64,000 nucleotides of DNA from a virus (IMGVR_UViG_3300014208_000023:288001-352000), one strand, 5' to 3'; shown: positions 6,735-25,263, counted from the first letter of the stretch. Notes: generated by a model from the letters alone, not told the origin. Numbers and translations are program-made.

Positions 6735-6750
6735 TTATGCCTCTTATGAG

Positions 6751-6761
6751 TATATATCAGC
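6751..6761 (-). promoter_or_regulatory. GCTGATATATA motif, candidate promoter
   Basis: Intergenic, 16 nt upstream of ATG 6734; identical to 3218-3228. Confidence 0.35.
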
Positions 6762-6813
6762 ATCACTTGCCTTACCGACAAGATTGCAATAATGATTATC
6801 GTATCAAACGGAC

Positions 6814-7934: not shown

Positions 7935-7954
7935 TGCGCACCATTTATAAAATG

Positions 7955-8875: not shown

Positions 8876-9873
8876 TTTTTATTTAGTAAATAAAGTTCTT
8901 TTTCAGCCAATTCCATATCATATTGAATCATCTCATCTACCAGCATTTGGAATGAAAACTTTGGTTCCCAACCCAGCTCTTTTCGTATTTTGGAAGAATC
9001 TCCGCATAGAGCATCCACTTCGCTTGCTCTAAAGTATTTAGGATCTATTTCAACATAGTTTTTGTAATCAAGCCCCAGATGAGAAAATACCATCTCAACA
9101 AACTCTAGAACTGAATGCATCTCTCCGCTAGAGATAACGTAGTCTCCAGGATTTTCAGCAGTTATGATTTTAAACATTCCGGCAGCTACGTCCGATGCAT
9201 GAGACCAATCTCTTTTGGCGTCTAGATTTCCTAGATATAGTTTTTCTTGTAGCCCTAGTTTTATACGAGTTGCCGCTCTAGTTATTTTTCTGGTAACGAA
9301 GGTTTCTCCTCGTCTAGCGCCTTCGTGATTGAAACTGATGGCGTTACTGGCATGCATTCCATAAGCTTCTCTGTAGTTTATGGTGGCGTAGAATCCGGCC
9401 ACCTTTGCCACTCCATACGGAGACCTTGGGTGAAATGGCGTTGTTTCACTCTGTGGTGGATTTTCAGATCCAAACATTTCGCTGCTTGAGGCCGTAAGGA
9501 ATCTGGTTTTGGGACTACATTTCCTAACTGCCTCCAAAACTCTCATTACTCCGGTTCCTGTAACGTCCATGGTATAAACTGGAATATCAAAACTTACCTT
9601 AACGTGAGATTGCGCTCCCATGTTAAATAACAAATCTGGCTTAATATCTCCTATCCAGCTAGATAGTGATGCATAATCAGATAGGTCTCCATATGTTAAT
9701 TCTAATTGCGCATCCGAATGCGGATCTTGATAAAGATGGTCTATTCTCTCCGTATTTAGAGAGCTACTTCGACGCTTTAATCCATGAACCTTATAGCCTT
9801 CTTTTAGAAGAAGTTCGCATAGATATGATCCCGTCTGTCCAGTAACGCCAGTAATGCAAGCAGTTTTAGTCAT
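8872..9873 (-). CDS. gmd: GDP-mannose 4,6-dehydratase
   Basis: ITGVTGQTGSYL, AQSHVKVSF, ASSSEMFG, PRSPYGVAK, FNHE, ETFVTRKI, LGNLDAKRDW. Confidence 0.97.
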   Translation of the reverse strand: MTKTACITGVTGQTGSYLCELLLKEGYKVHGLKRRSSSLNTERIDHLYQDPHSDAQLELTYGDLSDYASLSSWIGDIKPDLLFNMGAQSHVKVSFDIPVYTMDVTGTGVMRVLEAVRKCSPKTRFLTASSSEMFGSENPPQSETTPFHPRSPYGVAKVAGFYATINYREAYGMHASNAISFNHEGARRGETFVTRKITRAATRIKLGLQEKLYLGNLDAKRDWSHASDVAAGMFKIITAENPGDYVISSGEMHSVLEFVEMVFSHLGLDYKNYVEIDPKYFRASEVDALCGDSSKIRKELGWEPKFSFQMLVDEMIQYDMELAEKELYLLNKK

Positions 9874-9928
9874 TTAAAGTCCTTAACAATTCTATATCAA
9901 ATGAACAAAAAGTTTTTCAACTAAAATT

Positions 9929-10183
9929 TCATTTTTTACCATATATTTTGGTCGATCCCTGCCCATATAGTTTTTGTGCCTCTCCGGTTTTAACCATATG
10001 ATTTATCTGCTCGTCTATCTGCTGAATAAGATCATTTCTCTGCTGGTTTGCTATGTTAGTAAGGCGAGTGGCATCTGCAATCTCCTTATCTGTAGCGGAT
10101 TTATTCCTCTTAATATCTTCGGCCATCCATATTCTTATATTGGTTACTGATAAGCTGTCAATTAGATTTCCAATAGTAGTCAT
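9929..10183 (-). CDS. DUF4254-like small helical protein
   Basis: TIGNLIDSLSVTNIRIWMAED...NQQRNDLIQQID pattern. Confidence 0.6.
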   Translation of the reverse strand: MTTIGNLIDSLSVTNIRIWMAEDIKRNKSATDKEIADATRLTNIANQQRNDLIQQIDEQINHMVKTGEAQKLYGQGSTKIYGKK

Positions 10184-10977
10184 TGTTTCCTAGTTTTGAA
10201 TTGTTCGATGTCTTCTTGCGTATCATTTAGAAGGTCCCAATACGTATATTCCCAATTTACGGATGGGGTAATCCATTTTGTATTAGTTGGCGGAGTGCTT
10301 GTATCTTCATTAACAAGATCGTGATATTCTAAACCGTTCATTTCGTATAAATCTTGCACGAAGTTTCTAACATTAAACGCCATTCCGGCCCCAACCATAC
10401 AATCTTCGATCTGCCCTATGCTTTTGCTTACGACAAATTTTGTATGAACCATATCTCGCTCGAAGTCCAAATTACCAACACTAATTTTTTCATTATTTAC
10501 GATCGATCTAAATATCTTTCCAAATAGGAAATACTTGCTTCTATACGTTGAATTGAAATAGAATGGGTGAATAAATATAACTTTTTTGTATAGATCGTTT
10601 AATTCACGAAGTTCTTTAATTTTATTTAAGAGAAGTAGTTTAGAAATCGCGTATTCATTTTTAAGATCGAAATTTGGTTCCGTATCTAAAGATATTACTC
10701 CCTCCCCAAACCCTCTCCACAATTCACAACTGGTGTAGCACACTATCTTTTTGGAGTTTTGCAGAAGGGCTTTGATTATCTTTAGTGTGTTCAGATAATT
10801 CGGAGTGATATAGTCAATGTTCTTTTCGTATATTCTCTGCTCGGCAAAAGTAATATATACAGAGTCCCATTGATTTTGTTTTAAATAATTGAAGTCAATA
10901 TTTCTGGAGGAAATTTTGACATAATCATCCGGAAAATACTGGGCTAACTGGGACGAACTTCCTATCACTAAATCCAC
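10180..10977 (-). CDS. Atypical NAD-dependent epimerase/dehydratase (SDR)
   Basis: Degenerate GSSSQLA glycine motif, YAISK (YxxxK), RDMVH. Confidence 0.7.
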   Translation of the reverse strand: MDLVIGSSSQLAQYFPDDYVKISSRNIDFNYLKQNQWDSVYITFAEQRIYEKNIDYITPNYLNTLKIIKALLQNSKKIVCYTSCELWRGFGEGVISLDTEPNFDLKNEYAISKLLLLNKIKELRELNDLYKKVIFIHPFYFNSTYRSKYFLFGKIFRSIVNNEKISVGNLDFERDMVHTKFVVSKSIGQIEDCMVGAGMAFNVRNFVQDLYEMNGLEYHDLVNEDTSTPPTNTKWITPSVNWEYTYWDLLNDTQEDIEQFKTRKQ

Positions 10978-12194
10978 TAGACACCTATAACTTCAAATTT
11001 CGGGCAGGGGACTATAAAACGACCACCTGCTAACAAATAATCCTGTTCTCTGCTGACAAACTCATTTATAAAATGCCAAGGCAATACTAGTAAATAATCT
11101 GGCTTTGCTCTACGCATCTCATCTTCAGAGTAAATCGGTATATTTGTTCCTACCGTTTTAAGCCCAAACTTATAGGGACTACGCTCGGCAATTCCATCGA
11201 TTAACGTGTGGTCAAGTCCAAAATATTGCAATAGGGTATTTCCTTTGGTGGAGGCGCCATAACCCCAAATAGTCTTGCCTTTGGCCTTCTCTTCTTTTAT
11301 AAAGAATACGGTTTTTTCTTTCAAAGATTCTATATCATTGTAAAACGATATCCAGGTTTCAGCTTGGTCTAATTTCAAAGTTTTTTCATATGCCAATAGA
11401 GAATCAACTCTCATATTGCAGATGTCTCTATATGGTTGAGAAGAAAATGTTTTTTCATCACCAGATTGTTTCATCGTATAAATTCTAAATGACCCGCCAT
11501 TAACATCATTAAGCTGGCAGTCCATAACTTTAAACCCATTTTTTTCTAGCAAAGCTTTTAAATTAAAAAGAGAATAGTAATAAATGTGTTCGTGACAGAT
11601 ATTATCAAAAGCCATTTGTTTAATCATTAATGGCGTATAGCTTAATTGAAGAACCCAAATGCCATTATCATCCAACACTTCTCCGATATCACGAATAAAT
11701 GAGTCTGGGTCTTCCAGGTCATAAAACATAGCTATAGAGGTTATTACTTTCGCTTTTAATCCGCCAAACTTACATTTTTTAAATGTATTAGCGCTAAAGT
11801 AATCTTGAATAATTAAATTGGAATGTTTTTGTGACTCGGCTTTATATGAATCATCTACCGGATCTATTCCAACTCTGATTAGGTCAGATGGTAACCACGA
11901 AAGAAGCGTTCCGTCATTACAAGCAATATCTATCCAAAGATCATTTTCTTTAAGTTTTTTTATTTTAAGAATGGAATCAACTATATCTTTTAATTCTTGT
12001 TTCATAGAAGAATTAATGCCGCTACGATACCAATATGTTCCATACATAGTATTTAACGGAGCTGATTTGGAAAGCTTAACGTTTCCATCATCAGTTAGCA
12101 ATAGTTTCATTTCAACCTTATCGCCCCGTGGTGGCTGGTTGTCTTTTATAAAGTCAGAAACATATAGGTCGCCTAAAGTAAAAAGCTCTTTCAT
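10977..12194 (-). CDS. NDP-sugar C-methyltransferase
   Basis: YWYRSG, DIACNDGTLL, SIAMFYDL, DNICHEH, GYGASTKGNTLL, LPWHF. Confidence 0.92.
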   Translation of the reverse strand: MKELFTLGDLYVSDFIKDNQPPRGDKVEMKLLLTDDGNVKLSKSAPLNTMYGTYWYRSGINSSMKQELKDIVDSILKIKKLKENDLWIDIACNDGTLLSWLPSDLIRVGIDPVDDSYKAESQKHSNLIIQDYFSANTFKKCKFGGLKAKVITSIAMFYDLEDPDSFIRDIGEVLDDNGIWVLQLSYTPLMIKQMAFDNICHEHIYYYSLFNLKALLEKNGFKVMDCQLNDVNGGSFRIYTMKQSGDEKTFSSQPYRDICNMRVDSLLAYEKTLKLDQAETWISFYNDIESLKEKTVFFIKEEKAKGKTIWGYGASTKGNTLLQYFGLDHTLIDGIAERSPYKFGLKTVGTNIPIYSEDEMRRAKPDYLLVLPWHFINEFVSREQDYLLAGGRFIVPCPKFEVIGV

Positions 12195-12206
12195 TATGAT
12201 TTTGAC

Positions 12207-13106
12207 CTAAAATTTGTTTAATGTTTCCGATATTGCCTGCGCGAATCCACTGTTCATTCTATCTAAAGACATATTATCGCAAATAAAGCTATTAACTGAA
12301 CCATTAGCAATAACCGAACTTTGAATCATAGTTCCGCACATTTCTACTCTGGGAACCGGCTTATTGCCCCAGCAACTTACTGCCTGGGTAATTCCGCTAC
12401 ATACTCCAATAAATAAATCGCAATAATTATGAACTAGCGCTAACTGTCTTACGGTAAAACTAGATCCGGAAACAACCCCAGGATCATCAACATATTTTGT
12501 ATGATCCATCATGCTGGCGAAAATAAAATTACATTTTCCAAATTTAGCCCTGCATAGAACCATCATATTTCTAATTACTTCTTCGCTCAAATTAAAATTG
12601 CCCGCCGATCTCAATTGAGACTCTATCATAACGGTTTTTGGGTGAGGTAGTTTAGAGCAAAACTCTCTTGCCATTTCACGCTCTTCATCGGAGAATTTTA
12701 GGTAAGGATGCCATTCCGCCGATGGATCTACGCCAAAAACCATTCTTGGTATATTTGAGTAATTGACATCATTAAGGGCATTATTTGGAAGCATTGCCCA
12801 TGGAGCTGGAAAATAACCATTATGCAGGTCTTTCATAGTATCATAATCCTGCCTTCTATTTAATAGAAGTTGCCCGTTTTTATCCATTAAATTTCTAAAG
12901 TCTTCTTGAGGCCAATCTCTTATTTCAGAGATGGCGTCATTATGCTTTAGCATATCCATGTACGTGGCTTTTTCTGGGGAAGTATTGAGAAACCAAACGA
13001 TTTCTTTACCAGGCCATAGGATATCTTTATATTTCAAAACGCAAGTGCATAAAGCTATGTCACCGTGCTGCCCATGAACAAAAATTCCAATCTTATTATT
13101 TACCAC
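12207..13106 (-). CDS. Putative GT-B glycosyltransferase (GT9-like)
   Basis: N-terminal HGDI after beta strand and C-terminal LFIGVCSG resemble GT9 motifs; cluster context. Confidence 0.5.
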   Translation of the reverse strand: MVNNKIGIFVHGQHGDIALCTCVLKYKDILWPGKEIVWFLNTSPEKATYMDMLKHNDAISEIRDWPQEDFRNLMDKNGQLLLNRRQDYDTMKDLHNGYFPAPWAMLPNNALNDVNYSNIPRMVFGVDPSAEWHPYLKFSDEEREMAREFCSKLPHPKTVMIESQLRSAGNFNLSEEVIRNMMVLCRAKFGKCNFIFASMMDHTKYVDDPGVVSGSSFTVRQLALVHNYCDLFIGVCSGITQAVSCWGNKPVPRVEMCGTMIQSSVIANGSVNSFICDNMSLDRMNSGFAQAISETLNKF

Positions 13107-13155
13107 ACTTGTCCTTATGTCAATACTTTGTTATTGGTATAGATAAGGGACGCAA

Positions 13156-13788
13156 ATGACATATTACTCTCAAGCATGGCAAGACGAATTCGTTATAAAT
13201 CTTTTGAACTTTAAAAAGAATGGGCACTTCATAGACATAGGAAGCACCGATGGTATGAATCAAAGTAATTCATATTTTCTTGAAAAAGAAATGGGGTGGA
13301 AAGGAACTTGCGTTGAGCTTGGAATCGGCTATACCGAGCACTATAAAAACAATAGAAGCTGCGTATTCTTAAATGAAGACGCTACCAAAATAGATTATAA
13401 ATCTTTATTTGATAAAAATCAATATCCATCACGAATAGATTATTTGTCTTTGGATATTGATGAGAGCAGTATGCTTGGTCTTGCAAAATTACCGTTTGAT
13501 GACTATAAGTTTAGCGTTATAACTATAGAGCATGACTCGTATAGATTTGGTGATATACTGAAAAATCAAGAGAGAGAATTTTTAAGGCATCACAATTATA
13601 CTCCATTATTTTTAGACGTTCTAGTTCCGCTTGGCTGTGGAATGGGACCAAATCTTTCATTTGAAGACTGGTGGGTAGATGCGTCTGTTTTTAATATGGA
13701 AAAATTAAACAAATTAAGTGCCACAAGAATGTATCCAGACGAAATAGTTGCTATGATAAAAAATAAGAAAGATATATACGCCATATAG
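13156..13788 (+). CDS. FkbM-like SAM methyltransferase
   Basis: YSQAWQD, FIDIGSTDG, IDYLSLDID, ITIEH. Confidence 0.8.
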   Translation: MTYYSQAWQDEFVINLLNFKKNGHFIDIGSTDGMNQSNSYFLEKEMGWKGTCVELGIGYTEHYKNNRSCVFLNEDATKIDYKSLFDKNQYPSRIDYLSLDIDESSMLGLAKLPFDDYKFSVITIEHDSYRFGDILKNQEREFLRHHNYTPLFLDVLVPLGCGMGPNLSFEDWWVDASVFNMEKLNKLSATRMYPDEIVAMIKNKKDIYAI

Positions 13789-13807
13789 TGAAAGGTTCGC
13801 CGAAAAT

Positions 13808-14623
13808 ATGAAAAAAATAATAAGCTACTCTTTGTATAATTCTATTCCAAAGAACACGATAAATGCCATCATCAACTGTATGTTGGTGCCTAAAATATAC
13901 CCAGGCTGGATAGCAAGATTTTATATAGATGATACTGTGCCAAAGCCTATTGTGGATATTTTACGAACTTTTGACTATGTTGAAATAGTTGAAATGCCAA
14001 GGGGAACTGGAAGTGAGCGTATGTGCTGGCGGTTCCTCCCAGCGGCAGACTATAATGCAATAATGATATCACGTGATTGCGATAGCTGGATTAGTTCAAG
14101 AGAAAAAGTTTGTGTCGATGCTTGGTTAGCTAGTGATAAAAACTTTAGTATTATTTATGATCACTGTTATCACACGGACTCAAAAATTAAAATAATGGGT
14201 GGCGTGTGGGGCTCAAGAAATGGTATCATTCCAAAGATGGCCGAAGAAATTGATAAGTTTGTAAATGCTGGCCAAACTTATGACCAGGGCCTATTATCAT
14301 CCGTAATCTATCCAAACATTACGCATACCGTCATGATTCATTATGGTGACCCTCAATATAATAATAAGGGGGAACGAATTCATCGAGGCAGCGAACTTGG
14401 AGGAGTTCCAATTCCGCCCTATGAAGAAAACGACGAGCCAATTCCTGGCCTTTCATTTAGACGCGTTAATAAGTTGAATGAATTTTTCTGCGCTCACTGC
14501 AAAAAACATCATGACGTTTTCATTGGTGGCATTATGGAACATATTCCAGAAGATGCTATGCAGGTTGTCAGAAATTACGCTAAAGAAAAGGGAATTTCAG
14601 TAGAAAATTGTCCTGGCTTCTAA
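13808..14623 (+). CDS. Putative glycosyltransferase-like protein
   Basis: IISYSLY, YPGW, WRFL, SRDCDS (DxD), MGGVWG, DQ motifs. Confidence 0.6.
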   Translation: MKKIISYSLYNSIPKNTINAIINCMLVPKIYPGWIARFYIDDTVPKPIVDILRTFDYVEIVEMPRGTGSERMCWRFLPAADYNAIMISRDCDSWISSREKVCVDAWLASDKNFSIIYDHCYHTDSKIKIMGGVWGSRNGIIPKMAEEIDKFVNAGQTYDQGLLSSVIYPNITHTVMIHYGDPQYNNKGERIHRGSELGGVPIPPYEENDEPIPGLSFRRVNKLNEFFCAHCKKHHDVFIGGIMEHIPEDAMQVVRNYAKEKGISVENCPGF

Positions 14624-15393
14624 TAAAAATACTTCAAAAACAAATCCATTCTTAATTTATGCCCCTCAGCAAATGAGGGGAAATAAGAATTCCATTGAGA
14701 ACCAGCCATATAATGGTAGAACCCATTAGCAACCCAGCCGGCACTTAATCCATATTTGCCACATATAAATAAATCATCTCTAAAATACTGTAAGAATGGG
14801 GTATCTTTGGCTGTGCTAATATAATTTAATATTTGGCTATTTTCCAGAAACTTAACTTTTTCTGGATTACTTTCAATAAAGTATCTGGTTTTCCCACCAC
14901 AATCTAGTCCTGGCTCTAATCCAAAATCTATATTTTTAGGATTTTGTAGAAGAGCCATATTAATGATCGTAAATGCTGGGTAGAAATAAATAATTCCTTT
15001 ACCATCCAATATTTTATATTCAGTTGTGCTTGCCGCAATATTGTTTCCTATAATATTTGAAACATTAATATCTTCTATTGGAAATACATCAGTATGAAGC
15101 AAAATAATAATTTCACAATTATTTTTAACGGCATAGTCTTGTACTGCCCAATTTAAAGTGGCAGCATATCCTTCTGAAGGATTTTGAATCTTATGAATAC
15201 TTTGCGGAACTCTCACGCAATTAATTTTATTATAGGAGGTCACCAGATTTATGGCCGCTTCCATCTCCGGATCCATTGCATCATTAAATAATACAAAATC
15301 AAAATCTTCTTTCATATACTTTTGAAATTGTCTATACATTATATCAATTGGAAACTTATCATTGACAGCAAAAGAGAAAACGGATATTTTCAT
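14620..15393 (-). CDS. Putative GT-A-like protein
   Basis: LLHTDVFP, LDCGG, YHYMAGSQW; glycan cluster context. Confidence 0.5.
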   Translation of the reverse strand: MKISVFSFAVNDKFPIDIMYRQFQKYMKEDFDFVLFNDAMDPEMEAAINLVTSYNKINCVRVPQSIHKIQNPSEGYAATLNWAVQDYAVKNNCEIIILLHTDVFPIEDINVSNIIGNNIAASTTEYKILDGKGIIYFYPAFTIINMALLQNPKNIDFGLEPGLDCGGKTRYFIESNPEKVKFLENSQILNYISTAKDTPFLQYFRDDLFICGKYGLSAGWVANGFYHYMAGSQWNSYFPSFAEGHKLRMDLFLKYFY

Positions 15394-16289
15394 ACAAGCT
15401 CCATAGAATTAATAGTTTCTTGAAGACCGTCCTTCAAAGAAGTAAATGATATATTTGGCATTATTGTTTTTAAGTATTGATTGCTTACGGTTTTCTTTAA
15501 ATTTCCATCAGGCTTACTGGTATCAAATTTAATTTGATGTTTGAAATTGACTATTTCGCCAATCGTAGTTGATAGGTCTGCAATACTAATTTCTTCGTCA
15601 CCGCAACAAATTACTGGTTTTGTGTCGAAATAAACATATACCAATTCTTTTATTATTGAGGCTAAATCTTTAGAATAAATAAACTGCCTTAATGGCTTGC
15701 CGGCACCACTCATTATGACATCAGAATTATTTTTCTCTGCATCTTTAAACTTATTAATTAAGTTTGGTATTAACCTACCAGAAGACATATTGTCATTTGG
15801 GCCATAGATATTTGACGGTATTATTCCAAAGTATTTTCTGCCATATTGAGTGTTATAATTTTGGCACTGTAGCTCAAGCATTCTTTTTGAAAACGCGTAT
15901 CCGGCAAAAGCTCCGGTTAAATTGCCTTCAAAAATCATAGACTCGTCCATAGGAAATTTTGATGGAACTTCTGGAAACATATTGACTGAAAGGCAGCACA
16001 TTACATTTTGAATATTAGATATATTGGCTGCCTCTAATACGTTTTCATTTATTCTAACATTTGTTGAGAACGAAGAAACTCTATCTATATTGTAGAAGCC
16101 AGGAACATATGATGCCAAATGAACAATATAATCTGGCCGCATCTCATTTATAAAACCAATAGTCTGCGATCTTTCCGTTAAGTCACAATCTTTTCTATTG
16201 ATGAATATCCAATTATTTTCACCTGAGCACATAGACTTTAGCGCGCTTCCTACGCAACCATCACTTCCAGTAACTAAAATACGTTTCAT
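15390..16289 (-). CDS. GDP-fucose synthase-like SDR paralogue (probable reductase)
   Basis: VTGSDGCVG, HLAS, YAFSK, PSNIYGP, LRQFIYSKDLA, KPDG; epimerase Cys and His positions read N and R. Confidence 0.85.
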   Translation of the reverse strand: MKRILVTGSDGCVGSALKSMCSGENNWIFINRKDCDLTERSQTIGFINEMRPDYIVHLASYVPGFYNIDRVSSFSTNVRINENVLEAANISNIQNVMCCLSVNMFPEVPSKFPMDESMIFEGNLTGAFAGYAFSKRMLELQCQNYNTQYGRKYFGIIPSNIYGPNDNMSSGRLIPNLINKFKDAEKNNSDVIMSGAGKPLRQFIYSKDLASIIKELVYVYFDTKPVICCGDEEISIADLSTTIGEIVNFKHQIKFDTSKPDGNLKKTVSNQYLKTIMPNISFTSLKDGLQETINSMELV

Positions 16290-17488
16290 GGCTTGTAGCT
16301 CAACAATATATCAACCAGATCATCCACTAGATCGGCCGACATTAAATTGCTTGGAAGACCTATAAAACACCCTCTATAGTGGCATTTCTCGGCCCCTTTA
16401 AAATCAGCCGGATTTAATTCAGGATAAAGATCCTTGATGACTGGCTGCCTAACCATATTGCCGGTTATTATTGGCCTATTTTCGACGCCTTTGCTTGAAA
16501 GATAATCTAAATAATCTGATAGCTTAATGTTTTCATCCAAAAACATAGTTACTCCAAACCACGCAATATCGCCATTATCTATTTCTTTTGGAAATGAAAT
16601 AAAGCTACCTCTTGGATCTGCTTCTATTTTTGACTTTATATTGCTATAGTTTATTTTCCTATTTTCGTTTTTAGATTTTAATTTATATAGCTGATGCACG
16701 CCCATCGCCGCCTGTATCTCCATGGGCCTGACGTTATATCCTAGATTTACGAAAGTAAATCTTGGGTCTATGTCCGGAAACTGTTCCTGAATTTCATTCT
16801 TATTCTTTAGGCTCCTAGACCAACCATGGGCACGCAGACACTTTATGAGCTCATAATCCTCATCGTCATCACAAACTACCATTCCGCCTTCCATAGTAGT
16901 TATGTGATGTGAATAATAAAATGAATATGTGGCAAAGGTTCCAAAAGTCCCCAGGTATTTGCCATCATATTTGGATCCTAGGCTTTCACACGTATCCTCT
17001 ATTAAAATAAGATTGTGGCGCTTAACTATATCCATTAATTTTCTCATGTCGGTGGAGTTTCCTAGGACATGAACCAACATAATGGCTTTTGTTTTTTCAG
17101 TTATTTTCTTTTCTAGATCCTCTAAATCTATATTTAGAGTTTCAGGATCTACATCGACAAACACTGGAACTAGATTGCACTGAACAATTGGAAAAATACT
17201 TGTAGACCAACACAAGGCCGGAACAATAACTTCATCGCCCGGCACAAGCTTATTGGCTCTTTTGTAGTTAGTTAAAGCGGCTACGGCTAACAAATTGGCG
17301 GACGAACCAGAATTAACCATAACTGCATGTTTAGCACCAACATATTCTGCGAACATATTTTCGAATTGGCTTACCTGCTCACCCATAGTGAAGTTTCCGG
17401 TAAGCAATACTTTAATCATATTTAAAATATCATCAGTATCGTGAGCGTTCTGTCCCAATGGGAACTTCATAATTAACGGTGATTTCAT
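16286..17488 (-). CDS. colD: PLP/PMP-dependent GDP-4-keto-6-deoxymannose 3-dehydratase, ColD-like (DegT/DnrJ family)
   Basis: NSGSSANL, WSTS, EDTCES, SFYYSHHITTMEGG (His in place of Schiff-base Lys), RAHGWSR, GYNVRP; no E1-type Cys cluster. Confidence 0.8.
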   Translation of the reverse strand: MKSPLIMKFPLGQNAHDTDDILNMIKVLLTGNFTMGEQVSQFENMFAEYVGAKHAVMVNSGSSANLLAVAALTNYKRANKLVPGDEVIVPALCWSTSIFPIVQCNLVPVFVDVDPETLNIDLEDLEKKITEKTKAIMLVHVLGNSTDMRKLMDIVKRHNLILIEDTCESLGSKYDGKYLGTFGTFATYSFYYSHHITTMEGGMVVCDDDEDYELIKCLRAHGWSRSLKNKNEIQEQFPDIDPRFTFVNLGYNVRPMEIQAAMGVHQLYKLKSKNENRKINYSNIKSKIEADPRGSFISFPKEIDNGDIAWFGVTMFLDENIKLSDYLDYLSSKGVENRPIITGNMVRQPVIKDLYPELNPADFKGAEKCHYRGCFIGLPSNLMSADLVDDLVDILLSYKP

Positions 17489-18552
17489 AGTTGGCTCTTA
17501 AGGCTGGTAAGAATTTCTTGCCAGTTATTATAAACTGAAGATCTTCTCAAGATATTGTGTTGGGACATATTATAGCTAATTTCGCTAGTATTTACGGTAT
17601 TTAATAAGTGAGATAGGTGAGATGGTGAATCAAAATATTGAATATATTTCATATTTCCTTCGTCGTAAAAATCACAGGTATCTATCCATTTATTTAAAAC
17701 CTCTGGGTTTCGAAGACTATTTGGATTATTTATATCTTCTGGCTCTTGCGCCTTACCTACTCTATAAAAAGTAAGGTCAGCAAATGCTTTGTTTTGATGA
17801 AACAATTCTTTTAAATAGGATTTAGATGGGAAAAATAATGGAACGTTAGCCGTATATTGCTCGAACGTAGACATTGTTCCATTGTGATATGGAATATGAA
17901 TTATTCCTTTATAACTATATAGATCTGCCCAGCTATATTTCCAGTTGCCGTTTCTTATTGCGCCAAGACTGACACACGAATTTCCAGGAACAGATATCTC
18001 TGATCGATCATGTATAACGAACTGATTTTTTGTTCCAGTATATTTGGCATTTGTATATTCGCATAAGTTTGGAATATGCATGCCAGTAATTCCAGTCATA
18101 TATTTAGTGTAATATTGGTCTCCTTTATTATTGCAAACATAATAAAGTTTTCCAGATGCAGCTCTTTCTTTTAGAAAGATATTTAATCTATCTCTAATTG
18201 CTAGATTGAAAGTATTGGGATGGTCATATCTAATACAATTAACAACTATAATTGGTTTATTAAATTTTTCATATAGAAGAGCGAATTCAGTAGGATAGCA
18301 CGCAATGAAGCCATCATATTTGCTTAATTCTTCTTTATTTGCCTCATAGAACTTATCACAAACTTCTTGCGTGCATACTCCAGAACAAGTTAATTGCGTT
18401 CCATCACTTAATTTGATATTTGGTTTAGGCTTATTTAAAACCCAGTGATGACCGGATAGCGACCAATCATCAACTTCATGGCCCAAATTTTTGAAAATAT
18501 GAGCCACATCTGCTATGACTGAAACGTGCTGGTCTATGTTGAAAAATTTCAT
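17485..18552 (-). CDS. Putative glycosyltransferase-like protein
   Basis: MSTFEQYTANVPLFFP resembles GT-B nucleotide-binding segment; cluster context. Confidence 0.5.
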   Translation of the reverse strand: MKFFNIDQHVSVIADVAHIFKNLGHEVDDWSLSGHHWVLNKPKPNIKLSDGTQLTCSGVCTQEVCDKFYEANKEELSKYDGFIACYPTEFALLYEKFNKPIIVVNCIRYDHPNTFNLAIRDRLNIFLKERAASGKLYYVCNNKGDQYYTKYMTGITGMHIPNLCEYTNAKYTGTKNQFVIHDRSEISVPGNSCVSLGAIRNGNWKYSWADLYSYKGIIHIPYHNGTMSTFEQYTANVPLFFPSKSYLKELFHQNKAFADLTFYRVGKAQEPEDINNPNSLRNPEVLNKWIDTCDFYDEGNMKYIQYFDSPSHLSHLLNTVNTSEISYNMSQHNILRRSSVYNNWQEILTSLKSQL

Positions 18553-18567
18553 ATATCCTAAATATAA

Positions 18568-19413
18568 TTATACTGCTTCAGAAGAGGTGTGAAAAAGCCG
18601 AATACCTATTTGCGTTTTGTTTTCTAGAAAATACATCTGCACATCAAACCCATTACTAAATGGCTTAATAGTATTATACAAAGTATATGGCGAAAACCAA
18701 TACTTATGATCTGGATGAACCATTTCTAACGAAAACTCATCTGAACAAAAAATTTCCGCAACTGCCATACACGGAACAGTGAATAAATATTCTTTAGCTT
18801 TTACTGAAAAAATATCTTTTAAAAATAAATCTACATTTGGAACGTGCTCCATTACTTCAGGAACTATGACAATATCATATTCTTTATCAACATCCTTATA
18901 TGACGTAAAGTATGTTCCTGGGCAGGCCTGTTTTAGCTTATTTGTGGTTTCAACATCAATATCCAGACCGTCTATTCGCGTATTTATTCTTTTTTTAAAT
19001 TCAGAATAAGCTATTTCTGCAAGAGAAGATGCAAGCTCTGCCTTGGCGAGCGCTTCATTTCCAACGGCCTGTTCTGGCGTTACCTTCGCTCTTTCTTTAG
19101 TTCTTTCTATTTTTGCCTTATCTACTTTCTCTTTAAGAACTATTTCTTCTTCGGTCTTCATGTCCTTAAGTTTAGATAAGAATATATGCAAATTAGATTC
19201 CACATTAAAAACCATAGTGTCAGCGCATCCTACATGTAGGACTGTTTTGCCCTGACATAAATTTCCAATAAATTCAAATCTAGAATGTCTGATATTTTTC
19301 AGATGCATTTTTTGTATATAAAAATTATCAGTAGCCTCGTATGTTTTACGGGCAATTTTAACTGGTGCTTCTGGTGCTTCGATAACTTCTAGCTGCATAT
19401 TTTCTCCGGTCAT
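18568..19413 (-). CDS. Class I SAM methyltransferase with helical insertion
   Basis: VLHVGCAD, GLDID, EVMEHV, HPDH; ~60-aa charged insert. Confidence 0.75.
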   Translation of the reverse strand: MTGENMQLEVIEAPEAPVKIARKTYEATDNFYIQKMHLKNIRHSRFEFIGNLCQGKTVLHVGCADTMVFNVESNLHIFLSKLKDMKTEEEIVLKEKVDKAKIERTKERAKVTPEQAVGNEALAKAELASSLAEIAYSEFKKRINTRIDGLDIDVETTNKLKQACPGTYFTSYKDVDKEYDIVIVPEVMEHVPNVDLFLKDIFSVKAKEYLFTVPCMAVAEIFCSDEFSLEMVHPDHKYWFSPYTLYNTIKPFSNGFDVQMYFLENKTQIGIRLFHTSSEAV

Positions 19414-20129
19414 ATTTTAATCCATTCTGGTGGTAAAAGGTCTTTTGTGTTATGTTGTAGTGCCGGCCCAAACCAGGTACTTGGTGCCAGAACTTTTTTA
19501 TTTTCGTTTTTATTTAGCCAAGCTCCCCACCAGCTAAAGCTACTGTTGCATATAATATTGCTTTCGCATGTTTTAGCCATCAAAGCTAAATCTATTGCCG
19601 GCCCATTTCCCTCAGAATATTCGTATTGATTTCCTACGAAATTTCTTTTGGCCCAGTCCATATCATCAGATAGAATCAAAAATTTCTTGCACCCACTCAT
19701 TTCCATTGCTTTTGAATAATAATCCATACTCATAAGTGGATGACAATTTTGAAAATTAAGGTAATCACCTCTTCTTATATGAAGAGAACACAATCCCTCT
19801 TCTCTTTCAAACTTATAAATTGGAGTTAATGCTTTAGCTATTTCTTCTTTATTATTTTCAAAGTATTTCCAGGATTGGAAATATCCTATTAAATCCACCG
19901 AATTAGACGCTGGGATTTCATCATAATGAAATGCTTTTTCCTGATAAGTTTTAGATACGGCTATATTTGATGAAAAACAATTATGCAAATTAAAGTTAGG
20001 TTCATATTGCCAAGGTGGAAACTGATAATCCGTATTGTTTTTAATAGCAGTAGATATAGTGGTAGCTATCTGGAATAAACAATTCCCTAACCTACCCATC
20101 TTTCCTAGCTGTGAAAACGTAACTGTCAT
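19410..20129 (-). CDS. Alpha-1,2-fucosyltransferase, GT11 family
   Basis: GRLGN, GYFQS, HIRRGDY, SDD, NSSFSWWGAWL. Confidence 0.93.
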   Translation of the reverse strand: MTVTFSQLGKMGRLGNCLFQIATTISTAIKNNTDYQFPPWQYEPNFNLHNCFSSNIAVSKTYQEKAFHYDEIPASNSVDLIGYFQSWKYFENNKEEIAKALTPIYKFEREEGLCSLHIRRGDYLNFQNCHPLMSMDYYSKAMEMSGCKKFLILSDDMDWAKRNFVGNQYEYSEGNGPAIDLALMAKTCESNIICNSSFSWWGAWLNKNENKKVLAPSTWFGPALQHNTKDLLPPEWIKI

Positions 20130-22459
20130 TGCCTTATTTCGTGGTGGTTTTTATCAAGTAGAAGTATTTTTGGCGCAAATGTTTTTGGAAGCCACTTCTT
20201 CTTATAAGACTCAATATTTGATTGAGGGTAGTGATAGCTTGGAGTCAAAATTACTGTTGGCTCGTTGTCTAGAAAATACCTATTTATTGCGGTCTCGTCG
20301 TGCCAAACTGGAATCACGTTGTTTGCCACATCTCTATCTATAACATCCTTACACCATTTAGCAAGCTCCATATACTTGTCTCTTCTACCTCCACTAAATC
20401 CTCCGCCAAAATAGTTCTTATATTTTTTTGGATACGAATCAGAAATGAATAAACGAGAGGCTGGATTTGTTTCAAATGGACCCTTACCATTAGTAAATCC
20501 ACAATGCTGAACGCCAACCAAATCGCCTATAATCTCTGGCCCAATATTATCTACGAATAAACAATCAACATCTACATAATATAGATAATCTTCATTATTC
20601 AGAATATGCTCATTGTTTGCGAAATGGGCAAATCGATCCATACTGGCAAATGGAAACGGTTTATGCTGAATTGGAATATGAATTATTCTACGATCCGATT
20701 TTGGAATATGAACTGTTTTTCGCTCAGCATCTAATGACGTTATGTCGCTAAAAACATAATATGTTACATCAAAATTTTCATTTAGAAAATGTTTGTCGGC
20801 AGAATCTATTATTCCTTGCAAAAATCTATCATATTTGCCCGTGGCTATAAGCATTAGTCCAACCGAAGTTTTTTTACTTGGCGGAGATACTGGAGAATAC
20901 CGAGGCATATTTCTAATGTGCCTATCAAGATCTTGTTGCATCTTAACATTTACTTTATGATCATTAATTGGGTTTTCCATATTATAGACATAAAGAATAT
21001 CTGAAATGTATTTTTGATGGTGTTTTGCCATTTCCATCATAGGAAACATTATGGCGAAATCCCATGTCATCTTGAAAAATTCACCGTTAATCGATAAATC
21101 TTCTTTTCTTATTATTTTGAATAGCCAAGCATAGAACGTTCTTAAGTGGGAGGCTGCCCAAGGCGTTTTTCTAAACGCTAGATTTTCTATAACTTCTGGT
21201 CGATAGGCGCCGGCAATACCTGAGCCGCCATTTGGGTGGTTTGTATATTGTCCGTAAGACATCCAAATATCACTTTCATTGTAGTGACGCTTAAGTCTAT
21301 TCAAAACCTCTCCATCGGGAAGCCAGTCATCACCATCAAGCGTTAGGACAATTTCATCATCAGCACAACTATGAATCATATTATATAGATTTGCCAACGC
21401 TCCTTGTCTGGAGTTATTCTTTATTACGGTGCATTTATGTTGGTGCGGTGAGTTTTTCACCGCAGCATTTACCAAATTGAATGTTTGATCTGGAGAGCAA
21501 TCATCTACAAATATGACTCTGAACTTATCATAATTTTGATTTAGTGCCGACAATATATTCTTTACGCACCATCTTTCATTATTGTAGCTTGGAATAACAA
21601 TAACGAACCTTTTTTCTTTAGAATCCAATGACCACGCTCGCGGAACATTAACTAGGGCCGTTTTCATTGGCAAACTAATTGATGTTGGATCATTAAGTGT
21701 TAGTGGCTTGCCAATAGTTAAGCCTGGCCTTCTTGAATTAATAAAGCGCTCACTATACTGAACATCTCCGCTTCTACGTGCGGCATCTGACTCCAGCTTA
21801 AGAATATGGTGCCTATCTCTGCGTATAAACCAAAGCCTTCTATTACCAAATTTTCTTCCGGTATCATTAACCGACCAGTCATATCTAAATTGGCCGTGAT
21901 TTAATTTAGTCTCATCAACCCTTTTGAATTTTGCATTCAATGATGAAAGCTTGTTTTGCAGATTTTTTTCTGAAACAATGCTTCCTTCTCCACTGAAGGA
22001 ATGATCGTCTATATCTTTAGATTCATAAATAGGAACTAATATATTTGGATTAGAAGAATCTAATATTTCAGTTTCTAGAACTATTCTTTCAGAAACTGAA
22101 AGCAACGATTCTATATGTTTTTCATATGTCTTAAGGTGACATAGAAGATCTATGCTAATGGCCATATCAAAAGAAAAAGGCTCGAATGGAAAATCTTTTT
22201 CCAAATCGAGCTGCATTGTTTTTATATATGGGAACTTTTTTCTAATAAGATTTAGGTTAGATTCTCTTGCATCTACGCAAGTCATCTCCGCCCCTAACCT
22301 TGCAAATATATTGGCAAATTCTCCGTTACCGGCACCCAAATCAAGGATCTTTTTTCCTTTGAAAAAGGTCTGTCCAAAATAATCAATTATAGTTTTGCTT
22401 AACTTGAAATTTCTCTCTTTTTGCTCGGCTGGAGTCATAACTCTAAATATAACTGCCAT
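20126..22459 (-). CDS. Multidomain methyltransferase + GT2 + GT6 fusion protein
   Basis: LDLGAGNG (aa ~1-215); IPSYN, DDCS, LDGDD (GT2); IATGKY, YYVDVD, GGFSGG, WHDETAIN (GT6, ~20126-20870). Confidence 0.88.
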   Translation of the reverse strand: MAVIFRVMTPAEQKERNFKLSKTIIDYFGQTFFKGKKILDLGAGNGEFANIFARLGAEMTCVDARESNLNLIRKKFPYIKTMQLDLEKDFPFEPFSFDMAISIDLLCHLKTYEKHIESLLSVSERIVLETEILDSSNPNILVPIYESKDIDDHSFSGEGSIVSEKNLQNKLSSLNAKFKRVDETKLNHGQFRYDWSVNDTGRKFGNRRLWFIRRDRHHILKLESDAARRSGDVQYSERFINSRRPGLTIGKPLTLNDPTSISLPMKTALVNVPRAWSLDSKEKRFVIVIPSYNNERWCVKNILSALNQNYDKFRVIFVDDCSPDQTFNLVNAAVKNSPHQHKCTVIKNNSRQGALANLYNMIHSCADDEIVLTLDGDDWLPDGEVLNRLKRHYNESDIWMSYGQYTNHPNGGSGIAGAYRPEVIENLAFRKTPWAASHLRTFYAWLFKIIRKEDLSINGEFFKMTWDFAIMFPMMEMAKHHQKYISDILYVYNMENPINDHKVNVKMQQDLDRHIRNMPRYSPVSPPSKKTSVGLMLIATGKYDRFLQGIIDSADKHFLNENFDVTYYVFSDITSLDAERKTVHIPKSDRRIIHIPIQHKPFPFASMDRFAHFANNEHILNNEDYLYYVDVDCLFVDNIGPEIIGDLVGVQHCGFTNGKGPFETNPASRLFISDSYPKKYKNYFGGGFSGGRRDKYMELAKWCKDVIDRDVANNVIPVWHDETAINRYFLDNEPTVILTPSYHYPQSNIESYKKKWLPKTFAPKILLLDKNHHEIRQ

Positions 22460-22504
22460 TATAAGAGTTTTGCAACATATTAATCATCTCGTATTTATAT
22501 ACAA

Positions 22505-25249
22505 ATGGCCACAAATTATCCTACCCATATTGACGACACCTCTAGCTTGCCAGTTGTGGCTGATAACGTACATAGAGTAGATTCTGATGTTATTAATCGA
22601 TTACGGGCCGCAATTATAGCCGTTGAATCTGAATTGGGCACAAAACCAAGTGGAATATATGGAACCGTAACTAATCGGCTTGATGGGTTTGAAACTCTAA
22701 TTAATTCGATCATTAGCGCCGGCGTTGCTAGCAGCTTTACTGCTGCCGGCGATTTAAGCGGGAACTCTACTAGCCAAGTAGTTATTGGCTTACGTGGAGT
22801 TTCAGTAAGCTCTACGGCACCAACAAATGGTCAAATATTATCATATGATGGATATTCTTGGAAAGCTAAGGGGCCACAAACTCCAGTTGTTACACAGGAA
22901 GCTTGGTTCATAGATCCAGTTAGCGGCAACGATTCCAATAGCGGACTTACTTCTGGAACGGCTCTAAAAACTCTTGCGGAAATGTATTCTCGCTGGGGTC
23001 CGGCTCCAAAGCTATTAGCATCTGTTTCTGGATTTATTACCGTAACACTAATGAGTGCTCCGGGCATAAATGACCCCATTATTTTGAGCGGAGATCTTGG
23101 TCCAGACACGAATTTAATGTATAAAGGAGCGGCATCTACCGTTAGATCTGGAACTTTTAGTGCGGTAACTGCACTTAATTCAGCAACAAATCAAGCGTGG
23201 GAAGTTGATGATAGCGCTAGAGATTGGACTACGGATCTAAATAAGCGCATTAAAAATACGACTGCCGGAGCAAATCTTGGACAAGTAGCCTGGGTAGCTA
23301 AAAGCATAGGTGGAACATCTGCCAGAATATCGCAGCCGGCATTTATTGATGCGGCCACAATACATGGATATACCGGGCCAACAGTTGGAGTATTCTCCAC
23401 TAGCGACACTTATATAGTAGAAGATATTACGGAGGCTTATTTAGCAAGCGTTATTCGCGTAGGCCGTTTCGAAGGCAATGAATTAGTTCACCCTGGTAGG
23501 GTATTTTTTCAGGATATTTATTTTAAAAATTCAGTTGGCGGAACACTAATTCAGCAGTGTGCTTCTTTAGTATTTTTGGGTTGTCGTTTTGATAACTCAT
23601 ATCTTGAGCATGCATTAGCTCCTGCATTTATGAATTGTAATTTGGGTAATGGTATTGGCATCTTTGAATCTGAAATGTCAACAATTACAGGAATGATTGC
23701 GGGAGATATGAATATAGCTTCTGGCAGTAAAGTATATATGCAAAATTGGCTGGTTCAGGGCGCGACCATTTATTTATTTGGTGGAGATGTAGTTCTTACT
23801 GGAACTTTAGGAATTTTTGATTCTGCCGCAGACGCGATCAACGTTGGATATGCTAGTTACGGCAAAGGGTCTCTTGATGCTGGGCTAGCTTTGTTTGGAA
23901 GTGGCAATGCTGGGCATGGAGTTAATATTGGCCCACTAGGATCATTAGCTTATGCTACAACCCCTACAATTACTGGAACTGCCGGCAACGTTGTTATTGA
24001 TGGAACATCGCTAACATGGAGAACGGCACCGCAAATTTTTAGTGGAACAAACAATTCTACGAGCACCTTTTCAGTAGGTCCAAACCCCGCTCTTACTGGC
24101 GATTGTTTGCGCCTTGGACCATCCATAGCTAATGCTGGCGTATATAACAATGTAATAACCACTCGCATCAATGGTGCAGATGCTACCGTCGTCAGAATTC
24201 ATGACGGCGCCTCTTACATCATGCTGGGAGATACCGGCTATTACATGACGCTACAAGGCTATAATAACGTGTTCGCTTCCAATGCGTTAGGCATTCACGA
24301 GTTCATAATTGGAGCTGCTGACGCAATGCAACTTAATGCTAACGGCGTTCAGATTGGGCCAGGCGCTTTTGATCTTGGCGGTGGAACTGGTGTAATCGGA
24401 ATTGATGACGCGGCCGTTGTTCCAACAACCAATCCAACAGGCGGAGTAGTTCTTTATTCTGAAACGGGGGCACTGAAATTCAGAAACCCAGCAGGCACAA
24501 TAACAACACTTGGTTCAGGCGGATCTCCAGGCGGTTCTGATACGTATATTCAATTTAATGATACTTCTACTTTTGGTGGCGATGCTGGACTTACCTATAA
24601 TAAAACCACAAACGTTCTTTCATTAACCGACGCTATTGCTATTGGAGCAATACCTGCATCTGCGGGCTCACTGCGATTAGCAACCAGTTCTATTATAAAC
24701 TATCGCAATGCATCCAATACTGGAGACGTTCAAGCACTCAACTGTGATGGTTCGTTTGTGTATGTCGGAGATGTTAGTCGCAATGATTCTGGATTATTGC
24801 TATATTCTGGTGGTAGTGTTGCCATTAATGCAACTGGTGACGTTGTGCTTGGGTATGGCACGCCAAGATTAACTGCCACTACTACCAATATTCTTTCTAC
24901 ATTTCCACTTATTGGTGATAGCGCCAACACTTCGCCATACGGTGTTCATGGAGGAGTAATTGTTACTCCAGCAATAGACGCTGCCGTAACACTAGTGGCA
25001 GCAGAATATAACTTCGATTGGATTCAAGTTGATACCGGCGCTTGGGCGACTGGCCCATTTGGGGTTATTTTTCCAACTCCAGCCACAAAAGCCGCGGGTT
25101 TTTATAAAACTGTTTTTAACAATTCGACGCAAACAATAACGGTGCAAAATGGCGGAGTAGCAACCAGAACTCTTACTACTGGACTTGGCCAGAGATTTTG
25201 GTTTGATGATGGCGGCGCGTTTTTTGCTGGGGCAACATTTACTCCATAA
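22505..25249 (+). CDS. Virion structural protein, tailspike/fibre-like
   Basis: 914 aa G/T/A/S-rich; WFIDPVSGNDSNSG motif typical before beta-helix domains; GGSDTYIQFN fibre-type segment. Confidence 0.6.
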   Translation: MATNYPTHIDDTSSLPVVADNVHRVDSDVINRLRAAIIAVESELGTKPSGIYGTVTNRLDGFETLINSIISAGVASSFTAAGDLSGNSTSQVVIGLRGVSVSSTAPTNGQILSYDGYSWKAKGPQTPVVTQEAWFIDPVSGNDSNSGLTSGTALKTLAEMYSRWGPAPKLLASVSGFITVTLMSAPGINDPIILSGDLGPDTNLMYKGAASTVRSGTFSAVTALNSATNQAWEVDDSARDWTTDLNKRIKNTTAGANLGQVAWVAKSIGGTSARISQPAFIDAATIHGYTGPTVGVFSTSDTYIVEDITEAYLASVIRVGRFEGNELVHPGRVFFQDIYFKNSVGGTLIQQCASLVFLGCRFDNSYLEHALAPAFMNCNLGNGIGIFESEMSTITGMIAGDMNIASGSKVYMQNWLVQGATIYLFGGDVVLTGTLGIFDSAADAINVGYASYGKGSLDAGLALFGSGNAGHGVNIGPLGSLAYATTPTITGTAGNVVIDGTSLTWRTAPQIFSGTNNSTSTFSVGPNPALTGDCLRLGPSIANAGVYNNVITTRINGADATVVRIHDGASYIMLGDTGYYMTLQGYNNVFASNALGIHEFIIGAADAMQLNANGVQIGPGAFDLGGGTGVIGIDDAAVVPTTNPTGGVVLYSETGALKFRNPAGTITTLGSGGSPGGSDTYIQFNDTSTFGGDAGLTYNKTTNVLSLTDAIAIGAIPASAGSLRLATSSIINYRNASNTGDVQALNCDGSFVYVGDVSRNDSGLLLYSGGSVAINATGDVVLGYGTPRLTATTTNILSTFPLIGDSANTSPYGVHGGVIVTPAIDAAVTLVAAEYNFDWIQVDTGAWATGPFGVIFPTPATKAAGFYKTVFNNSTQTITVQNGGVATRTLTTGLGQRFWFDDGGAFFAGATFTP

Positions 25250-25263
25250 TAAATATGGGTTAT

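Follow-up and report, generated by a model that had tools for sequence, protein, structure and literature searches.

Here, we describe a putative glycan-assembly set encoded in a 64,000-nucleotide stretch of viral DNA (the window; bases 288001-352000 of IMGVR_UViG_3300014208_000023), which comprises one polypeptide that joins a methyltransferase, a family 2 glycosyltransferase (GT2) and a family 6 glycosyltransferase (GT6) and, next to it, a translationally coupled gene for a family 11 fucosyltransferase (GT11). The virus record is 428,320 bp long with direct terminal repeats, carries phage-type helicase and primase genes, and is the genome of a phage. GT6 enzymes make the ABO and alpha-Gal antigens, and we infer the biology of this fusion and GT11 set from its sequence: probably, though with considerable room for doubt, GT2, GT11, GT6 and the methyltransferase would work in that order to make a fucosylated cap resembling the blood-group A or B antigen.

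A conserved three-domain fusion coupled to GT11

The open reading frame (ORF) at 20126..22459 on the minus strand encodes 777 amino acids (aa), and Pfam places all three of the domains that an initial annotation had read into it above their cut-offs: Methyltransf_11/25 at residues 38-118 (44.7 bits for PF08241 vs a threshold of 21.2), Glycos_transf_2 at residues 287-433 (67 bits) and Glyco_transf_6 at residues 529-750 (118.6 bits vs 25), with E-values spanning 1e-11 to 3e-34. An AlphaFold2 (AF2) model built with 30 homologues as input (mean predicted local distance difference test score, pLDDT, 85) has three separate globular domains, namely the methyltransferase at residues 1-225, GT2 at 285-520 and GT6 at 528-777. 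NCBIfam gave generic matches only for the methyltransferase and GT2 domains, with no equivalog for either, and PDB relatives of the GT2 domain include the TarS-like 5tze and SpsA.

A homologue search over 5.8 billion proteins returned 366 relatives, and motif conservation was scored on the 120 best. The methyltransferase-GT2-GT6 architecture occurs in most of these 120, and more than 100 metagenomic homologues are 45-72% identical to the fusion; their contigs reach 424-479 kb, which indicates that they come from related huge phages. The motif for S-adenosylmethionine (SAM), L39-D40-L41-G42-x-G44, is kept in about 100 of the 120, and the GT2 acidic motifs D319-D320 and D375-G-D-D378 are invariant, as are the GT6 catalytic residues described below; this conservation of catalytic motifs over 120 sequences argues that all three heads are under selection. 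Chance, mis-assembly or a frameshift-merged ORF as the source of the fusion was excluded by the domain E-values and because the same architecture recurs in more than 100 independent contigs.

As the initial annotation had also noticed, the fusion's stop overlaps the start of GT11, and the junction, ...AGG CAA TGA CAG..., can be read directly: the tetranucleotide ATGA at 20126-20129 holds both the start ATG and the stop TGA. Across 18 phage homologues the GT11 motifs H117-x-R119-R120-G-D122-Y123, S154-D-D156 and N195-S-S-F-S-W-W are kept, with H117, R119 and D122 invariant among them; the first motif reads H117-I-R-R-G-D-Y123 in the window and corresponds to HxRRGD(Y/F), which we take to be the GDP-fucose motif of GT11. 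No solved relative of the GT11 protein was found in a PDB search, and a predicted complex of the GT2-GT6 part (residues 278-777) with GT11 scored 0.00, a value that counts neither for nor against binding.

Catalytic and specificity residues of the GT6 domain

Searches against the PDB with phmmer matched the GT6 domain to BoGT6a (4e-36), human ABO (2e-28) and alpha-3GalT (1e-20), and Foldseek gave template modelling (TM) scores of 0.84-0.87 to BoGT6a and 0.72-0.76 to human GTA/GTB for the domain model, in which pLDDT is mostly 86-97, down to 60-71 around residues 571-590. The NCBIfam model NF041524 scores 158.6 bits, under its 250-bit subfamily cut-off. The DVD and WHDE motifs initially noted in the GT6 domain are D630-V-D632 and W719-H-D-E722; D630-V-D632 aligns with the metal-binding DXD and E722 with the catalytic Glu of the family (E303 in GTA, E317 in alpha-3GT, E192 in BoGT6a), and both are invariant in the 120 homologues. 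Among the homologues, D630/D632, H652, G654, G685-G687, D721-E722, L767 and K770 are invariant or almost so. Both the GT6 assignment and the DXD type stand, and the domain is predicted to be metal-dependent and retaining. It has no C-terminal membrane-binding BHB segment and ends directly after the catalytic K770-N-H motif; that segment is a feature of bacterial NXN GT6 enzymes (PMC3516806).

Three positions divide the GT6 enzymes that use fucosylated acceptors (GTA/GTB, BoGT6a) from alpha-3GalT (PMC3516806). The first, A1, is His in the former and Gln in the latter; A2 is Gly or Ser against Trp, and A7 is Ala or Ile against Trp. By alignment to 4ayj and 3ioh, the fusion has H652, G654 and L767 at these positions, all invariant in its family, which places it with the enzymes for 2'-fucosylated acceptors. 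The acceptor-contacting Trp, Tyr, Glu and C-terminal Lys are also retained. The positions that govern donor choice in the human enzymes, 266 and 268, are Leu/Gly in the A enzyme and Met/Ala in the B enzyme, with Ala/Gly in BoGT6a; their counterparts in the fusion are G685 and G687, in a wide Gly-Gly-Gly donor pocket that leaves space for an N-acetyl group and thus favours UDP-N-acetylgalactosamine (UDP-GalNAc) or a relaxed donor range. PaGT6 of Parachlamydia acanthamoebae, which is also of the DXD type, transfers GalNAc onto the H antigen and not onto N-acetyllactosamine (LacNAc), and requires Mg or Mn (PMC3516806).

Module shuffling among related phages

We fetched 22 related phage loci and mapped the island proteins onto them. 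At the DNA level, the region matched none of 50,697 phage records by megablast. The GT2-bearing gene of the related loci occurs in four versions. Form (a) is the methyltransferase-GT2-GT6 fusion of the window; form (b) begins with an all-beta region of ~400 aa and continues as GT2-GT6, at 870-930 aa; form (c) has the N-terminal region of form (b) followed by GT2-GT11 in one 873-aa ORF, confirmed by Pfam (locus L017); and form (d) is GT2 alone, at 250-260 aa. GT11 lies at most 2 kb downstream of the GT2-bearing gene in all 20 loci with downstream DNA, often overlapping the upstream stop, and among the phage loci GT6 never occurs without a nearby GT11. No GT6 was found anywhere in the records (up to 78% complete) of five relatives with forms (c) and (d), in a search that does detect the GT6 of the window genome. 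GT2 plus GT11 thus form the conserved core, to which GT6 and the N-terminal module are additions. Of the evidence presented here, these fusions and splits argue most strongly that GT2, GT11 and GT6 act on one glycan, and they bear out the functional coupling proposed in the initial annotation.

When the library was clustered at 50% identity, the three-domain form made up about 2 clusters and the variant form about 18, and GT2 and methyltransferase modules appeared in many other combinations. A midpoint-rooted FastTree of GT6 domains places all fused copies in one clade (SH-like support 0.86, or 1.0 with one further stand-alone sequence), with form (b) nested within form (a). The sister group of the fused clade is a large set of environmental GT6 proteins that stand alone; the fused clade lies apart from the enzymes of bacterial metagenome-assembled genomes (MAGs), of cyanophage P-SSM2 and of a 642-kb phage.

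Separately, the ~400-aa N-terminal region of form (b) (L010:8792-9991, with equivalents in L011-L017) was modelled as tandem beta-sandwiches (pLDDT 76) whose folds are akin to the carbohydrate-binding modules (CBMs) CBM51, CBM22 and CBM4 and to the Cry/Vip3 CBM-like domains; given low TM scores, this likeness is a lead only. In the 479-kb relative L003, the fusion gene and GT11 are parted by an insertion that encodes a LAGLIDADG homing endonuclease, and the sugar C-methyltransferase of L003 contains an intein (PF14890 plus LAGLIDADG); the stretches concerned are L003:12391-13050 and L003:21549-22223. A free-standing LAGLIDADG gene also lies in the window, at 33461-34384 (+).

The surrounding sugar island

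The fusion belongs to a 16-kb sugar island that also holds GT11, Gmd, Fcl, a ColD orthologue and a C-methyltransferase (Table 1). It leads a seven-gene run down to 14620, with six junctions that are 4-nt overlaps. The gmd and fcl genes, already remarked upon initially, lie on the fusion's strand ~10 kb beyond it, and with both present the phage would be able to make its own GDP-fucose. Within the run, the ColD orthologue matches PDB ColD 2gms at 9e-85 and keeps the active-site His-His in 'YSHHITTMEGG', which marks it as a 3-dehydratase rather than an aminotransferase; the second Fcl-like protein, a short-chain dehydrogenase/reductase (SDR) that always comes after ColD in relatives, scores 167 bits with NF047922 (GDP-L-fucose synthase), well below the cut-off. 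The phage's Gmd, ColD and ColC-like proteins probably supply GDP-colitose, and the colitose substitution suggested initially is reasonable because the ColD orthologue and the Fcl-like reductase share the fusion's operon.

Among the other genes of the island, the 281-aa methyltransferase-like gene directly follows GT11 in L002, L006-L009 and L015 too, and an Atlas feature search linked the 355-aa protein (0.98) to viral clusters auto-named 'glycosyltransferase family protein', which is a lead only. Orthologues of the stand-alone GT2 lie directly upstream of the fusion gene in relatives (42-62% identity by tblastn; L002-L012, L014, L016 and L018-L023). The TylC3-type C-methyltransferase adjoins a truncated SDR-like protein (10180-12194), and a branched C-methyl deoxysugar is probably also made.

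Membrane proteins of the island and the genome were surveyed by hydropathy scan and not by a hidden Markov model search. In that scan the island enzymes have no transmembrane segments, and only a small 123-aa ORF (7563-7934) has one N-terminal hydrophobic window. Across the 428-kb genome no ORF exceeds four hydrophobic windows, which argues that the phage encodes no polytopic Wzx, Wzy or WecA-like protein. The island thus does not qualify as a Wzx/Wzy- or ABC-dependent O-antigen or capsule cluster, being without its own phosphoglycosyl transferase, flippase, polymerase or ABC exporter in the same scan.

Table 1 Domains of the fusion protein, its immediate neighbours and the other genes of the sugar island (positions in the window)
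Feature	Position	Strand	Evidence and remarks
Class I SAM-dependent methyltransferase domain, fusion residues 1-225	21785..22459	-	PF08241/PF13649/PF13489; pLDDT ~90
Disordered linker, fusion residues 226-277	21629..21784	-	pLDDT <50 at 227-277 (AF2); poor conservation in alignment
GT2 (GT-A, inverting) domain, fusion residues 278-525	20885..21628	-	PF00535, cut-off 23.3 bits
GT6 (retaining, DXD-type) domain, fusion residues 526-777	20129..20884	-	PF03414
GT11-family fucosyltransferase, 239 aa	19410..20129	-	PF01531, 72 bits vs cut-off 23.9
281-aa methyltransferase-like protein	18568..19413	-	Weak PF13489, E 0.0045; start overlaps GT11 stop
355-aa probable glycosyltransferase	17485..18552	-	No Pfam or NCBIfam match; 62-80% identity in relatives
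ColD orthologue (GDP-4-keto-6-deoxy-D-mannose 3-dehydratase, DegT fold)	16286..17488	-	PF01041, 300 bits
Second Fcl-like SDR, 299 aa, candidate GDP-L-colitose synthase (ColC-like)	15390..16289	-	PF01370
257-aa conserved protein closing the overlapped operon	14620..15393	-	No family match (Pfam, NCBIfam); 55-72% identity in relatives
Rest of island	10180..14623	mixed	PF08484, PF16363 (weak), PF05050; partial conservation in relatives
Other island ORFs within this part: 299-aa unknown; FkbM-type methyltransferase (+); 271-aa unknown (+)			PF05050 for the FkbM-type methyltransferase
Sugar C-methyltransferase, TylC3-type	10977-12194	-	PF08484, 155 bits
SDR-like protein	10180-10977	-	PF16363, weak
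Gmd, GDP-mannose 4,6-dehydratase	8872..9873	-	TIGR01472, 451 bits vs cut-off 415
Fcl, GDP-L-fucose synthase	7955..8875	-	NF047922, 435 bits, full-length, below 500-bit cut-off; PF01370, 220 bits
Stand-alone GT2, 252 aa	6814..7572	-	PF00535, 70 bits
914-aa Gly/Ser/Thr-rich beta-helix-like protein, tailspike/fibre candidate	22505..25249	+	Divergent; 45 bp from fusion start

Proposed pathway and alternatives

The set would be a soluble phage module, with a SAM-dependent methyltransferase, an inverting GT2 and a metal-dependent retaining GT6 on one polypeptide and the coupled GT11 next to it. The GT2 domain would put a beta-linked hexose, most simply galactose (Gal), on a primer; GT11 would add alpha-1,2-fucose to that sugar, giving an H-like intermediate; the GT6 domain would place alpha-1,3-GalNAc (or Gal) on that sugar as well, to yield the A/B-like cap; and the methyltransferase would O-methylate the product. 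All steps would take place in the cytoplasm, and we infer both the sugars and the order of the steps. The acceptor, which is the weakest step, would most likely be a phage structural protein, by analogy with the virion glycosylation of chloroviruses and mycobacteriophages; a virion-protein target fits because no export machinery is encoded and because there is a precedent in PBCV-1 A064R. As GT6 and the methyltransferase are optional on the GT2 plus GT11 core, related phages should make H-like or A/B-like versions.

Several points weigh against this pathway. The donor, acceptor, product and glycosylated target are each predicted; the GT2 domain has no specific equivalog, so that 'beta-Gal' is a guess, and GT11 might take GDP-colitose rather than GDP-fucose as its donor. 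Pro661 of the fusion stands in place of the Thr that contacts Gal O6 (T134 in BoGT6a, T245 in GTA), in a flexible loop where the alignment is uncertain, and the equivalent position is Ser or Thr in stand-alone GT6 relatives; the acceptor may hence differ from the classic H antigen. The ABO-like epitope proposed in the initial annotation accordingly keeps its footing at A1, A2 and A7 and loses it at Gal O6, and a 'blood-group-like' product is consistent with the available sequence tests with this one miss. The tailspike-like gene beside the fusion does not adjoin the island in relatives and so lends little weight to a virion target. Bacterial MAGs of Chlamydiota and Dependentiae carry the GT2, GT6, GT11, gmd and fcl modules too, presumably for cell-surface glycans, which makes a host-envelope target quite possible.

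With such a target, the same chemistry would proceed at the inner host membrane on undecaprenyl- or lipid-linked glycans, and a host flippase or ligase would export the product, a scheme that we regard as less likely but as a serious rival. The lipopolysaccharide, capsule or S-layer glycan of the infected cell would in this way be remodelled, e.g., to block superinfection or to reduce the sticking of progeny to debris. The homologous modules on bacterial chromosomes speak for this, as do the WbnH/WbnJ/WbnK/WbnI pathway of E. coli O86 (PMC4506291), the interpretation of equivalent cyanophage clusters as cell-surface modification (PMC12801897), and the position of the island in relatives among non-structural genes (Thg1, IF3, peptidoglycan hydrolases). 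Export would require a host flippase that tolerates a foreign glycan, however, and the hydropathy scan gave no phage-encoded initiating phosphoglycosyl transferase, flippase, polymerase or ABC exporter, while the fusion's GT6 is without the BHB membrane-binding segment of the bacterial NXN enzymes (PMC3516806).

A product that is not blood-group-like would result if GT6 and GT11 were not sequential and served separate branches of a larger glycan with colitose and a C-methyl sugar; GT11 may then transfer colitose, and the acceptor of GT6 may be a galactoside without fucose. The ColD and ColC-like genes in GT11's operon, the Pro661 substitution in the acceptor loop, the persistence of GT11 in relatives where no GT6 was found, and at least two further putative glycosyltransferases and three further methyltransferases in the island, which point to a complex glycan, would all suit such branching. 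Yet L005 keeps GT11 without ColD while having gmd and an fcl-like gene, the residues at A1, A2 and A7 fit the fucosyl-acceptor class and not alpha-3GalT, and phage loci never show GT6 without GT11 nearby, and we consider separate branches improbable. Attachment of the glycan to bases of the phage DNA, to a small molecule or to a free oligosaccharide is most improbable of all. All enzymes of the island are soluble and the window has nucleotide-metabolism genes (a PurA/PurZ-like synthetase, a 5'-nucleotidase and a uracil-DNA glycosylase (UDG)), as such a target would suggest, but those genes lie more than 5 kb off, in relatives they do not keep synteny with the island, and the scanned island proteins include no hydroxymethylase or other base-modifying enzyme. 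We know of no GT6 or GT11 enzyme that acts on DNA.

If the stepwise A/B-like pathway does act on virions, self-encoded virion glycosylation would reach megaphages, beyond giant eukaryotic viruses and mycobacteriophages. A further, unlikely suggestion is that the clade of ~420-480-kb phages has an ABO-like presence/absence polymorphism, with the GT2 plus GT11 core as an 'H-type' and the GT6 head as an 'A/B' addition in some lineages. Virions of related phages would in that case show different blood-group-like caps, with methyltransferase or CBM-like modules swapped at the N-terminus, and the DXD GT6 pool of phages, Chlamydiota and Dependentiae would be the type of reservoir from which the vertebrate ABO family may have arisen by gene transfer. 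The patchy spread of GT6 (vertebrates, a few bacteria and a cyanophage) has been explained by a metal-dependent ancestor in prokaryotes or phages whose gene was passed on horizontally (PMC3516806).

Occurrence in bacteria and comparison with known systems

In MAGs of several phyla, Chlamydiota and Dependentiae/Babeliales among them, the GT2, GT6, GT11, gmd and fcl modules are found as well, with few exceptions each as a gene of its own. Of 77 bacterial loci, GT6 is present in 37, GT11 in 16 and both in 12; a GT2/GT6 fusion occurs in only two (L024 and L097) and the methyltransferase domain in none, counts by which a bacterial origin of the triple fusion was ruled out. The GT6 signature of the bacterial MAGs is D-A-D, His, Gly, A-G-G and Ala at A7. 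Apart from this, four Chlamydiota/Dependentiae MAG contigs (L034, L036, L041 and L076) have up to five tandem paralogues of the fusion's GT2 domain, often near GT6, GT11, gmd and fcl, and these arrays point to an expanded, uncharacterised fucosylated-glycan system in amoeba-associated bacteria.

Other phages carry related genes. GT2 and GT6 genes adjoin each other in a 642-kb phage, which also has fcl and a GT11-like gene, and cyanophage P-SSM2 combines a stand-alone GT6 (PSSM2_268), GT11 (PSSM2_265) and two GT2 genes in an operon whose annotation dates from its deposition. Like the fusion's GT6, those of P-SSM2 and PaGT6 have the DXD motif and no membrane-binding tail. They are, however, stand-alone proteins of ~230 aa, 32-41% identical to the GT6 that forms the C-terminal head of the 777-aa fusion, and differ from it in the donor pocket (A-G-G against G-G-G) and at A7 (Ala against Leu). 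GTA/GTB and BoGT6a share the fold (TM 0.72-0.87), catalytic Glu, acceptor His (A1), Gly (A2), Tyr, Trp and C-terminal Lys with the fusion's GT6, but neither is fused to other transferases and both have Thr where the fusion has Pro; BoGT6a is metal-independent (NXN), in contrast to the DXD-type fusion, and the human enzymes are Golgi type II membrane proteins.

In E. coli O86, WbnJ is a GT2, WbnK a GT11 and WbnI a GT6, and the O86 unit bears a B-like epitope. WbnH, WbnJ, WbnK and WbnI assemble the repeating unit stepwise on undecaprenyl pyrophosphate (PMC4506291). Those enzymes are separate and belong to a Wzx/Wzy cluster, whereas in the phage two are fused, a methyltransferase is added and Wzx, Wzy and WecA are absent. 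Closer in logic is chlorovirus PBCV-1, whose A064R is a GT-GT-methyltransferase that makes and methyl-caps capsid glycans and, like A111/114R (GalT-XylT-FucT), is soluble, has three domains and carries out consecutive virion-glycan steps, including methylation of the terminal sugar and fucosylation (PMC7826918). PBCV-1 differs in being a eukaryotic virus with other domain families in another order and without GT6, so that the likeness is one of logic and not of descent. Mycobacteriophages also have virion glycosylation cassettes (Freeman et al. 2023, as cited in PMC12801897). Their glycosyltransferases reportedly glycosylate capsid and tail proteins in the cytoplasm, and the cassettes are small and not known to include GT6, GT11 or a nucleotide-sugar pathway; the phage described here is uncultured.

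Phage DXD GT6 enzymes, phage GT11 and GT6 clusters, the GT2-GT11-GT6 mimicry logic and multi-domain viral glycan enzymes with a methyltransferase are already known. The initial annotation to that extent overstated the novelty of the set, as DXD GT6 in phages (PMC3516806) and the GT2/GT11/GT6 cluster of P-SSM2 are on record; the three-domain architecture, which the initial annotation did not recognise, is absent from the searchable literature and yet common in metagenomes. Searches of that literature for huge phages with glycosyltransferase and fucose, and for GT6 in bacteriophage, gave nothing relevant. The conserved methyltransferase-GT2-GT6 fusion in a megaphage clade, the fusion/split pattern, the variable occurrence of the GT6 head from one relative to the next, and the abundance of these modules in amoeba-associated bacterial lineages appear to be new in it.

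DXD-type GT6 is abundant in huge phages, where it comes hard-wired to a methyltransferase and to GT2 and GT11, which presumably act before it. The natural fusions and splits (GT2-GT6, GT2-GT11, GT2 alone) offer a ready genetic argument for reaction order, and the fusion would be a compact candidate enzyme for one-pot synthesis of fucosylated A/B-type glycans.

Neighbouring genes and further observations

The 914-aa protein divergent from the fusion consists of 19% S+T and 13% G, and its Atlas leads are pectate-lyase and beta-helix clusters (0.92). It has no Pfam or PHROG family, and the 768-aa and 648-aa ORFs have no PHROG. Its first 60-110 residues recur N-terminally in frames of 279-1974 aa in related phages, three of which exceed 1,700 aa, as expected of a tail-attachment anchor on exchangeable spikes. 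It was considered as a conserved partner of the fusion and dropped, as only this N-terminal anchor recurs, elsewhere in the relatives' genomes.

Pfam searches of the genome for HK97 and nucleocytoplasmic large DNA virus (NCLDV) capsids were both negative, the NCLDV search being without a positive control, and neither was used for virus classification. A promoter and terminator scan of 6000-25600 gave counts equal to those in shuffled sequence (79 vs 73 and 14 vs 13.5).

On the flanks of the island are two paralogous AAA ATPases, a UDG-superfamily glycosylase and an RlaP-type nucleotidyltransferase (4372-6734 (-), 3690-4379 (-) and 42645-43742 (-)), for which no link to the glycan genes was seen. 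Further out, the window encodes a SET-domain protein (PF00856; 617-1090 (-)) and a Thg1-like tRNA-His guanylyltransferase (PF04446 plus Thg1C; 2430-3209 (-)); in relatives L002-L009 and L015 the Thg1 gene is conserved at a place just upstream of the glycan island. An adenylosuccinate-synthetase homologue at 44422-45591 (-) matches PF00709 (263 bits) and phrog_1211, whose PHROG label suggests a PurZ-like protein, and the phage might, by that label, make 2-aminoadenine DNA.

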